Assembly (NCBI RefSeq): GCF_003334815.1
Contig: NZ_QOWO01000013.1
Source of the DNA: Escherichia coli
Lineage (GTDB): Bacteria; Pseudomonadota; Gammaproteobacteria; Enterobacterales; Enterobacteriaceae
Direction: 5' to 3' (one strand)
DNA: 64,000 bases
Shown here in pieces: positions 22,177-25,625 of this stretch. The stretch's first letter is position 1. The number at the start of each line of letters is the position of its first letter. Made by a program: the position numbers and the translations under genes. The notes beneath the pieces are model-generated. The model saw only the letters and a program-made list of their open reading frames with translations. It did not search any database and had not been told where the DNA came from.

Positions 22177-22509
22177 TCAGTTATCAGGCATTCTGGCCGG
22201 TGGAATAACCGCATTGGTGGCTTGCGCGTTGGCTTCGCTTTTTTCAACGCGCGAGCGCACCGAGCTGTCTTTGCGGAACACATCCCACGGCAGTAAAAGC
22301 GTGTCCATCACAGCGGTAAACGGCATATCGAGAATCGCCAGCGACTTAGTGCCCCAGTTGGTTTCATCGTCGCCAATCATGGTTGCGCTGGCGCGGGTGC
22401 CGGGATACGTTCCTTCTTTCCCTCCGGTATGGGACATCACGCTGGAGCATCCTCCGAGTAATGTCATTCCGCTGCATATCATGAACGCTAACAACACATT
22501 TCTTATCAT
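22177..22509 (-). CDS. yidQ: Putative lipoprotein YidQ (DUF1375)
   Basis: ORF MIRNVLLAFMICSGMTLLGGCSS... with a lipobox; 110 aa from that start. Confidence 0.8.
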   Translation of the reverse strand: MIRNVLLAFMICSGMTLLGGCSSVMSHTGGKEGTYPGTRASATMIGDDETNWGTKSLAILDMPFTAVMDTLLLPWDVFRKDSSVRSRVEKSEANAQATNAVIPPARMPDN

Positions 22510-22683
22510 AATAAATTCATCTGTTGATCGTGGGTGTTGGCCTGATGAGTTATAGCGATCCCTTGCTGAAAATAACATCATCATTACGTCGCACTGTGGC
22601 GGCTATCGCACTTTAACGTTTCGTGCTGCCCCCTCAGTCTATGCAATAGACCATAAACTGCAAAAAAAAGTCCGCTGATAAGG

Positions 22684-22713
22684 CTTGAAAAGTTCATTTC
22701 CAGACCCATTTTT
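22684..22713 (+). promoter_or_regulatory. Sigma-32 heat-shock promoter of ibpA
   Basis: CTTGAAA (-35) followed 14 nt later by CCCATTTTT (-10), matching the sigma-32 consensus CTTGAAA-N13-15-CCCCATNT, about 100 bp upstream of ibpA. Confidence 0.7.
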
Positions 22714-22814
22714 ACATCGTAGCCGATGAGGACGCGCCTGATGGGTGTTCTGGCTACCTGACCTGTCCATTGTGGAAGGTCTTACATTCTCGCTGATTTC
22801 AGGAGCTATTGATT

Positions 22815-23228
22815 ATGCGTAACTTTGATTTATCCCCGCTTTACCGTTCTGCTATTGGATTTGACCGTTTGTTTAACCACTTAGAAAACAACCAGAGCCA
22901 GAGTAATGGCGGCTACCCTCCGTATAACGTTGAACTGGTAGACGAAAACCATTACCGCATTGCTATCGCTGTGGCTGGTTTTGCTGAGAGCGAACTGGAA
23001 ATTACCGCCCAGGATAATCTGCTGGTGGTGAAAGGTGCTCACGCCGACGAACAAAAAGAGCGCACCTATCTGTACCAGGGCATCGCTGAACGCAACTTTG
23101 AACGCAAATTCCAGTTAGCTGAGAACATTCATGTTCGTGGTGCTAACCTGGTAAATGGTTTGCTGTATATCGATCTCGAACGCGTGATTCCGGAAGCGAA
23201 AAAACCGCGCCGTATCGAAATCAACTAA
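22815..23228 (+). CDS. ibpA: Small heat shock protein IbpA
   Basis: [43 protein letters not shown]..., alpha-crystallin domain, 137 aa. Confidence 0.95.
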
Positions 23229-23339
23229 TTCCCTAAGGCCGCCTGGCGCGGCCTGACATCTCCATGCTCGCCGTCAGGGAGCATATGCGAATCTTCGGAT
23301 TTGCAGGTACTTACTCGCTTCTTAGAAGGAGAAATGACT

Positions 23340-23768
23340 ATGCGTAACTTCGATTTATCCCCACTGATGCGTCAATGGATCGGTTTTGACAAACTGGCCA
23401 ACGCACTGCAAAACGCCGGTGAAAGCCAGAGCTTCCCGCCGTACAACATTGAGAAAAGCGACGATAACCACTACCGCATTACCCTTGCGCTGGCAGGTTT
23501 CCGTCAGGAAGATTTAGAGATTCAACTGGAAGGTACGCGCCTGAGCGTAAAAGGCACGCCGGAGCAGCCAAAAGAAGAGAAAAAATGGCTGCATCAAGGG
23601 CTTATGAATCAGCCATTTAGCCTGAGCTTTACGCTGGCTGAAAATATGGAAGTCTCTGGCGCAACCTTCGTAAACGGTTTACTGCATATTGATTTAATTC
23701 GTAATGAGCCTGAACCCATCGCAGCGCAGCGTATCGCTATCAGCGAACGTCCCGCGTTAAATAGCTAA
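23340..23768 (+). CDS. ibpB: Small heat shock protein IbpB
   Basis: [41 protein letters not shown]..., paralog of ibpA, 142 aa. Confidence 0.95.
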
Positions 23769-23784
23769 CTAGCTATTCTCTTTG

Positions 23785-23811
23785 CCCCGCCATTCTGGTG
23801 GGGCTTTTTTT
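23785..23811 (+). terminator. Rho-independent terminator of ibpAB
   Basis: CCCCGCCATTCTGGTGGGGC followed by TTTTTTT. Confidence 0.8.
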
Positions 23812-23963
23812 GTCTTACTTACTCAACAATGCGTTAAATTTCGACTGTTTAAGATATTTCGGCACGTTCTTTCCCGTGATAATGTGCGCTATAAGGCAAA
23901 TCTGCTTCACCGATTCAGCCATAATCCGTAGCAATTAAAATGTTATCTCAAGAGAAATGGACG

Positions 23964-25625
23964 ATGAGTGATATAGCATTAACGGTCAGTATTCTGGCTT
24001 TGGTGGCAGTCGTCGGTTTGTTTATCGGCAACGTCAAATTTCGCGGCATAGGATTAGGTATTGGCGGCGTGCTGTTTGGTGGGATCATCGTCGGCCATTT
24101 TGTTTCTCAGGCGGGGATGACATTAAGTAGCGATATGCTGCATGTTATTCAGGAATTTGGCCTGATCCTGTTCGTTTATACTATCGGGATTCAGGTAGGG
24201 CCGGGCTTCTTTGCCTCATTGCGCGTCTCCGGATTACGCCTCAACCTGTTTGCTGTTCTGATCGTCATCATCGGTGGTCTGGTTACCGCCATCCTGCATA
24301 AACTGTTTGATATTCCACTGCCGGTAGTGCTGGGGATTTTCTCCGGTGCGGTTACCAATACGCCAGCGCTGGGGGCAGGGCAGCAGATTTTGCGCGACCT
24401 GGGTACACCAATGGAAATGGTCGATCAGATGGGGATGAGTTACGCGATGGCGTATCCATTCGGCATTTGCGGGATTTTGTTCACCATGTGGATGTTGCGG
24501 GTTATTTTCCGCGTCAATGTCGAGACAGAAGCTCAGCAGCACGAGTCTTCACGCACCAATGGCGGCGCGCTGATCAAGACTATCAATATTCGCGTTGAGA
24601 ACCCTAACCTGCATGATTTAGCCATTAAAGATGTACCGATTCTCAACGGCGACAAAATTATCTGCTCGCGTCTGAAACGCGAAGAAACCCTAAAAGTTCC
24701 TTCGCCAGATACCATTATCCAACTGGGCGATTTGCTGCATCTGGTGGGTCAGCCAGCGGATTTACATAATGCGCAACTGGTGATTGGTCAGGAGGTCGAT
24801 ACTTCGCTGTCCACGAAAGGCACTGATTTGCGCGTCGAGCGTGTGGTGGTCACCAATGAAAACGTGCTCGGAAAACGTATTCGCGACCTGCACTTTAAAG
24901 AACGCTATGACGTTGTTATCTCGCGCCTGAACCGTGCCGGGGTCGAACTGGTCGCCAGTGGCGATATCAGCCTGCAGTTCGGCGATATCCTCAATCTGGT
25001 GGGGCGTCCGTCCGCAATTGATGCCGTTGCCAATGTGCTGGGGAATGCGCAGCAAAAACTGCAACAGGTTCAGATGCTGCCAGTGTTTATTGGCATCGGG
25101 CTAGGCGTATTGTTAGGTTCTATTCCCGTCTTTGTGCCAGGATTCCCGGCCGCGTTGAAACTGGGGCTGGCGGGCGGACCGCTGATTATGGCGTTGATCC
25201 TCGGGCGTATCGGCAGTATCGGCAAGCTGTACTGGTTTATGCCGCCAAGCGCCAACCTCGCGCTGCGGGAGCTGGGGATCGTGCTGTTCCTCTCGGTCGT
25301 TGGTCTGAAATCTGGTGGGGATTTTGTGAATACCCTGGTCAATGGCGAAGGGCTAAGCTGGATTGGTTATGGTGCCCTGATCACCGCCGTTCCGCTGATT
25401 ACTGTTGGCATTCTGGCGCGGATGTTAGCCAAAATGAATTACCTGACCATGTGCGGGATGCTGGCAGGTTCCATGACCGATCCTCCGGCGCTGGCGTTTG
25501 CTAATAATCTTCATCCAACCAGCGGTGCGGCGGCGCTCTCTTACGCCACTGTCTATCCGTTGGTAATGTTCCTGCGCATTATCACCCCCCAATTACTGGC
25601 GGTGCTCTTCTGGAGTATCGGTTAA
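23964..25625 (+). CDS. yidE: Putative transport protein YidE (AAE family, two TrkA-C-like domains)
   Basis: [35 protein letters not shown]..., polytopic membrane protein; 553 aa from the MSDI start. Confidence 0.85.

Follow-up and report, generated by a model that had tools for sequence, protein, structure and literature searches.

Promoter, ROSE-type leader, and Shine-Dalgarno hairpins of the Escherichia coli ibpAB small heat-shock operon

Genes and promoter of the ibpAB locus

Positions 22400 to 24000 of the window (i.e., the whole 64-kb stretch of E. coli DNA analyzed here) contain, in order, yidQ on the minus strand, a 305-bp spacer, ibpA, a 111-nt spacer, ibpB, a terminator, and yidE (Table 1). 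The gene identities proposed in an earlier note on this DNA, ibpA and ibpB, agree with the RefSeq annotation and with matches to NCBIfam equivalogs. A 1.4-kb query taken from the ibpAB stretch matched many E. coli chromosomes with 100% identity and was recovered at a coverage of at least 80% in 5418 of the 5426 complete E. coli genomes, always as a single copy and always on the chromosome. On the matching chromosomes, RefSeq already annotates ibpA and ibpB together with a ROSE feature (22749-22821). The region forms the 5' regulatory portion of the ibpAB small heat-shock operon of E. coli, which is already known and annotated in both RefSeq and Rfam. For comparative purposes, we used 82 sequences, consisting of the ibpA locus of 80 other Enterobacteriaceae species, the window, and RefSeq locus L001.

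TABLE 1 Coordinates of features in the ibpAB region of the window
Feature	Position(s)	Strand	Basis and details
A8 tract, UP-element-like by position	22662-22669	+	14 nt upstream of the -35 element; approximately -60 to -53 if +1 is 22722
Sigma-32 -35 element CTTGAAA	22684-22690	+	Sequence, conservation, and consensus match (7/7)
Sigma-32 -10 element ACCCATTT	22704-22711	+	7/8 matches to CCCCATTT; 13-nt spacer
Hairpin I	22719-22757	+	MFE fold; inner helix 22729-22751; -18.5 kcal/mol at 37°C
Probable +1	22722	+	Placed by the 'G71' numbering; 11 nt after the -10 octamer
Hairpin II, bulged G22765, core CCUGUCC/GGAAGG	22760-22781	+	MFE fold; part of the ROSE_2 match
Hairpin III (sensor): CUC, bulged G22792, CUG, loop AUUU, CAGGAG	22789-22805	+	Rfam structure line and RNAalifold (53 species)
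ibpA CDS, small heat-shock protein, 137 aa	22815-23228	+	RefSeq; NCBIfam NF008013 IbpA, 295.5 bits (cut-off, 212)
Three G+C-rich hairpins	23236-23254, 23264-23284, 23286-23305	+	MFE fold; none followed by a U-run
ibpB ROSE-like hairpin: CUC, bulged G23317, CUUC, loop UUA, GAAG-GAG	23314-23331	+	MFE and centroid folds
ibpB CDS, 142 aa	23340-23768	+	RefSeq; NCBIfam NF008618 IbpB, 288.4 bits (cut-off, 207)
ibpAB intrinsic terminator, 9-bp stem (7 G-C pairs) followed by T7	23784-23811	+	Terminator scan

Several other calls in the region were rejected. Open reading frames on the minus strand across the leader (22584-22709 and 22639-22770) are mechanical calls and are unsupported, as is a reading frame from TTG at 22809, which is in frame with ibpA and begins merely 3 nt past the Shine-Dalgarno (SD) sequence. 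Downstream of ibpB, the interval 23740-23812 gave sub-threshold Rfam matches to anti-hemB, Hrs1, PrrF, GcvB, and ncS54, with scores of 17 to 25 bits that are far under the gathering scores. A small RNA at this position was rejected, the weak matches reflecting a generic terminator stem and U-run.

The sigma-32 consensus has been described as CTTGAAA and the -10 element CCCCATNT (CCCCAT core) separated by 13 to 15 bp (PMC3168786). The sequence CTTGAAA-N13-ACCCATTT upstream of ibpA conforms to this definition at all seven positions of the -35 element, at seven of the eight positions of the -10 element, and in its spacing. The spacer may equally be counted as 14 nt (22691-22704) before CCCATTTTT (22705-22713), which corresponds to 13 nt before the octamer ACCCATTT. 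The near-consensus sigma-32 promoter that the earlier note placed about 100 bp upstream of ibpA is thereby located exactly and is unique in the window, with 103 nt between the end of the -10 octamer and the ibpA ATG (22815-22817). The position at which that note ended the region, 22814, is the last base of the leader, since the ATG begins at 22815.

Among the 82 orthologous upstream regions, the -35 element is CTTGAAA in 79 and CTTGATA in 3, the -10 form xCCxATTT is kept throughout, and the spacer is 13 nt long in 81, the spacer sequence itself being freely variable. Given that the two elements and the distance between them are kept amid variable flanking sequence, the motif is best regarded as a functional promoter and not as a chance match. 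The contrary reading, in which CTTGAAA is fortuitous and ibpA is transcribed from elsewhere, draws on the fact that the transcription start was deduced from published residue numbering. However, CTTGAAA-N13-15-CCCATNT occurs a single time in the 64 kb (both strands) and gave no match in 100 dinucleotide-preserving shuffles, the elements and spacing persist in some 80 species amid varying flanks, a scan of 22400-24000 found no sigma-70-like promoter, and genomic SELEX with the RpoH holoenzyme gave a peak in the ibpA/yidQ spacer (PMC5493296). We regard the probability of a chance promoter as negligible. In addition, a parallel rise of ibpA mRNA and RpoH at 45°C has been reported (PMC9032294).

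Upstream of this promoter, an A-tract of 6 to 9 nt is located 13 to 15 nt before CTTGAAA in 77 of the 82 sequences, within a conserved alignment block (AAAsTGCAAAAAAAAGT). To judge from its position, the A8 tract of the window would fit an UP element of the sigma-32 promoter; it could alternatively belong to a divergent yidQ promoter.

Leader hairpins and membership in the ROSE family

Transcription probably starts at G22722, which gives a leader of 93 nt (22722-22814). This assignment was made because the residue published as 'G71', deletion of which abolishes ibpA thermosensing (PMC2896394), coincides with the bulged G22792 only under that numbering. The leader comprises three hairpins, of which hairpins I and II were obtained by minimum free energy (MFE) folding of 22720-22830. 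Across 53 species, 94.4% of the inner helix of hairpin I is paired, and seven of its nine pairs show compensatory changes. Hairpin II, which has a folding energy of -9.0 kcal/mol at 37°C and a two-state Tm of approximately 79°C, is 93.9% paired in the 53 species and shows double changes at three pairs (e.g., GC in 28, AU in 18, and GU in 7). In the 53-species alignment, the structure of the whole leader outperformed 500 of 500 shuffles in both paired cells and covariation score, and it was 85.9% paired, which exceeded all slid registers (35 to 52%). The folding energy of the whole leader is ordinary relative to shuffles (z = -1.18).

Hairpin II has two further peculiarities. Its core, CCUGUCC/GGAAGG, is invariant in the 53 species, more so than pairing demands, whereas hairpin I covaries freely. 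With its bulged G and SD-like 3' arm, it also resembles both of the SD-masking hairpins of the operon, yet it masks no start site. We also considered a long-range pairing of 10 bp between 22751-22761 (UGGCUACCUGA) and the SD region, which appears only in RNA truncated at 22749. This pairing was rejected, as its 5' partner is taken up by hairpin I when the leader is complete and falls within a variable linker.

The defining feature of ROSE elements is that the hairpin nearest the 3' end contains a U(U/C)GCU motif paired with the SD (PMC3669281). In hairpin III, the UCGCU motif (22790-22794) is paired against the SD sequence AGGAG (22801-22805). The Rfam model ROSE_2 (RF01832) matches 22749-22821 along its entire length (model positions 1-73 of 73) with a score of 100.4 bits (gathering score, 65; E = 3.3e-23). 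The match ends at +7 of the ibpA reading frame and is thus situated in the 5' untranslated region of a small heat-shock gene, overlapping the translation start. Above-threshold matches to ROSE_2 at the equivalent position with respect to ibpA were obtained for 12 of the 20 other genera tested. The structural hallmarks of ROSE are all present, namely, U(U/C)GCU opposite the SD, a destabilizing bulged G, and, within a total of two to four hairpins, stable 5' hairpins preceding a labile sensor. The claim of the earlier note that a long ROSE-like leader occludes the ibpA ribosome binding site (RBS) is supported by this match and by the G-bulged SD hairpin found in both the Rfam and RNAalifold consensus structures, which contain the very G-bulge pairing against the SD that the note had suggested looking for.

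Hairpin III is 99.7% paired in the 53 species with a column identity of 0.997, and its loop and the SD-AUG spacer are variable. As the hairpin is essentially invariant, covariation provides no evidence for it within the Enterobacteriaceae. Its folding energy at 37°C (-4.1 kcal/mol) is weak compared with those of hairpins I and II. When G22792 was deleted in silico, hairpin III was stabilized by 3.8 kcal/mol, to -7.9 kcal/mol, and the predicted SD exposure fell below 1e-4 at all temperatures. According to these energy calculations, it is the bulged G22792 that keeps hairpin III marginal, in agreement with the published loss of thermosensing upon deletion of G71 (PMC2896394). The only change of the SD in hairpin III among the 53 species is found in Cedecea neteri (L049:1401-1515), which has CATGAG in place of CAGGAG. 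This substitution breaks one pair of hairpin III and weakens the SD, and it may be either a real variant or an assembly error.

Compared with described thermometers, the element shows no sequence difference from the E. coli ibpA thermometer represented by ROSE_2, as recorded in Rfam and in a paper citing the original report (Waldminghaus et al. 2009, cited in PMC3669281), and is the same element. The agreement extends to hairpin II, to the UCGCU/SD hairpin with its bulged G, and to the end at +7 of ibpA; the model covers hairpins II and III only, and the native leader adds hairpin I. The founding member of the family, ROSE1 of Bradyrhizobium japonicum hspA (RF00435), for which an NMR study (Chowdhury et al. 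2006) is cited in PMC3669281, likewise lies in the 5' untranslated region of a small heat-shock gene and, as summarized in that citing paper, has an imperfect U(U/C)GCU/SD hairpin with a bulged G and supporting stable 5' hairpins. ROSE1 differs in having four hairpins, versus three in E. coli ibpA, and transcription of the latter is probably sigma-32 dependent. The Rfam search of the region gave no match to the alpha-proteobacterial ROSE model, and ROSE_3 scored just 20.8 bits (cut-off, 43). The Pseudomonas ibpA thermometers belong to the same gene family and share the UCGCU/SD sensor and a similar induction (4- to 6-fold from 25 to 42°C); they have two hairpins, whereas the E. coli leader is longer and has two stable 5' hairpins (PMC3669281).

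The ibpA-ibpB spacer and the ibpB hairpin

Among relatives, the spacer between ibpA and ibpB is 54 to 237 nt long. In 77 of 81 relatives, a strong hairpin of differing sequence lies no farther than 45 nt from the ibpA stop codon. The hairpins of the spacer may serve as mRNA processing or stability elements. An internal sigma-54 promoter has also been described for ibpB; our scan for TGGCAC-N5-TTGC with up to three mismatches returned 600 matches versus 625 expected by chance and is uninformative at that looseness.

The SD of ibpB (AAGGAG, 23326-23331) is located 8 nt before the ATG at 23340 and is sequestered by a second G-bulged hairpin (23314-23331; -4.5 kcal/mol at 37°C). The earlier note had described ibpB as following a hairpin-containing spacer and as preceded by its own GGAG RBS. 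Both are present, and the hairpin over that RBS had been missed. In 80 of 81 relatives, ibpA is followed by the pattern CT[CT]-G-CTTC-N3-GAAG-GA[GA], whose loop varies and in which an occasional C is replaced by U, leaving a G-U pair. The SD hairpins of the two genes share CUC-G...GAG and differ in the upper stem (CUUC/GAAG in ibpB versus CUG/CAG in ibpA), which amounts to an indirect compensatory comparison. No Rfam model detects 23314-23331. An RNA thermometer of ibpB has been described in the literature (PMC10410725, bioRxiv 10.1101/2020.04.20.050740), and the hairpin found here is that thermometer. As portrayed in papers citing its original description (Gaubig et al. 2011), it resembles the ibpA element in belonging to the same operon, in its CUC-G-...-GAG SD hairpin, and in being repressed by IbpA. 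Unlike hairpin III of ibpA, it has a 4-bp upper stem, a 3-nt loop, and different preceding hairpins, and it escapes detection by Rfam.

Temperature response, IbpA autorepression, and layered control

The earlier note had proposed folding the leader with RNAfold at 30 and 42°C and had taken the lack of a predicted temperature-sensitive, SD-sequestering hairpin as evidence against a thermometer. We ran RNAfold from 20 to 50°C on five constructs and also derived, from the ensemble, the probability of all of AGGAG being unpaired. This probability was 0.06 at 25 to 37°C and 0.03 to 0.05 at 50°C; i.e., predicted exposure of the SD was roughly 5% throughout the range of 25 to 50°C, with no temperature-dependent opening. 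Read literally, this outcome would count against the thermometer. We judge the comparison to be unsound for that purpose and incapable of deciding the question, because a published study based on the Vienna software was equally insensitive, the melting of ibpA being not significantly different from that of 100 random mRNAs (PMC2896394), and because nearest-neighbor models ignore non-canonical pairs. ROSE hairpins are described as dependent on such pairs (PMC3669281), and the nearest-neighbor model used here omits both them and competition by the ribosome. Since the computation shows no melting, the evidence for thermosensing consists of reporter and probing experiments from the literature (PMC3669281), in which the E. 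coli ibpA thermometer conferred a 4-fold induction from 25 to 42°C on a bgaB translational fusion. A plain comparison of RNAfold structures at 30 and 42°C thus neither detects nor refutes an experimentally validated thermometer and is unfit as grounds for refutation elsewhere. The informative tests were covariance-model homology, the UCGCU/bulged-G motif, and comparative conservation.

In the RNAfold series, the ROSE hairpin was the optimum only at 42°C and above, and a different local fold covered the SD and AUG at lower temperatures. In this fold, C22791-G-C22793 pairs with G22817-C-G22819 and U22799-C-A-G22802 pairs with U22809-U-G-A22812. That the SD and start codon are masked in this manner, instead of by the ROSE hairpin, would accord with the fact that the fold is the MFE structure at 20 to 37°C in every construct containing the start codon and that its CGC/GCG helix can form in 100% of the 53 species. 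However, these two triplets are fixed for other reasons, CGC belonging to the ROSE motif and GCG to the AUG and an Arg codon. The inner helix is pairable in just 57% of cases, with its C-G pair present in 11 of the 53 species, and its 3' partner belongs to the SD-AUG spacer, which is variable (62% column identity). Compensatory changes are absent, the score is no better than that of shuffles, and both RNAalifold and Rfam pick the ROSE hairpin. We therefore rejected the low-temperature MFE fold over the SD and AUG, which is not conserved and is disfavored by the comparative data, and consider it very improbable as the masking structure. The bulged G22792 may nevertheless pair transiently with the start region, the CGC and GCG triplets being invariant.

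IbpA represses translation of both ibpA and ibpB via stem-loops of their leaders, and protein aggregates titrate IbpA oligomers away from the leader (bioRxiv 10.1101/2020.04.20.050740, PMC10410725, PMC10474464). This autorepression through the leader and the ibpB SD hairpin are two known layers of control that were absent from the earlier note. An alternative is that the leader is mainly a protein operator, with IbpA oligomers setting translation according to aggregate load and RNA melting being of minor physiological importance. The flat SD exposure predicted from 25 to 50°C, the resemblance of ibpA to non-thermometers in Vienna-based melting (PMC2896394), and the invariance of the hairpin II core beyond the needs of pairing are all consistent with this alternative. 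However, a heterologous translational fusion was induced 4-fold from 25 to 42°C (PMC3669281), and the leader has the defining ROSE motif with a bulged G whose deletion is reported to abolish thermosensing (PMC2896394). Moreover, the two mechanisms have been described as cooperating and not as alternatives, with IbpA acting as a 'safety catch' on a leaky thermometer (bioRxiv 10.1101/2020.04.20.050740). We consider a predominantly protein-operated leader unlikely; of the rival explanations, only the relative weight of RNA melting and IbpA binding in vivo is a live issue.

We hold with high confidence that control of ibpAB combines a sigma-32 promoter, a three-hairpin ROSE leader, and autorepression by IbpA. 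In this account, RNA polymerase with sigma-32 would initiate at about G22722 from CTTGAAA-N13-ACCCATTT, and the leader of about 93 nt would fold into the stable hairpins I and II and the weak hairpin III. At low temperatures, hairpin III, with its bulged-G UCGCU motif on the SD, would leave the RBS mostly occluded. Heat, together with competition by the 30S subunit, would open this marginal hairpin and permit translation. According to the literature, oligomeric IbpA on the structured leader would repress its own translation until titrated by aggregates, and ibpB would be controlled through a separate, similarly built SD hairpin with a bulged G. The promoter motif with its uniqueness and conservation, the hairpins, the SD/UCGCU pairing, the destabilization by the bulged G, and the ROSE_2 membership were computed here; heat-dependent translation, the transcription start, and IbpA binding are taken from the literature.

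Hairpin II (CCU-G-UCC/GGA-AGG), hairpin III (CUC-G-CUG/CAG-GAG), and the ibpB hairpin (CUC-G-CUUC/GAAG-GAG) have a common design, in which a purine-rich, SD-like 3' arm faces a pyrimidine-rich 5' arm whose bulged G is separated from a small loop by three pairs. We offer as a speculative and rather improbable idea that IbpA oligomers recognize this recurring 'G-bulged pseudo-SD hairpin' as the RNA determinant of translational autorepression, in which case hairpin II would be a module for protein binding or tertiary contacts and not a passive scaffold.

The locus exemplifies textbook layered control of the heat-shock response, composed of sigma-32 transcription, a ROSE RNA thermometer, and chaperone autorepression, to which the present analysis adds nothing new. 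The invariance of hairpin II and its likeness to the SD hairpins could bear on what IbpA recognizes in RNA.
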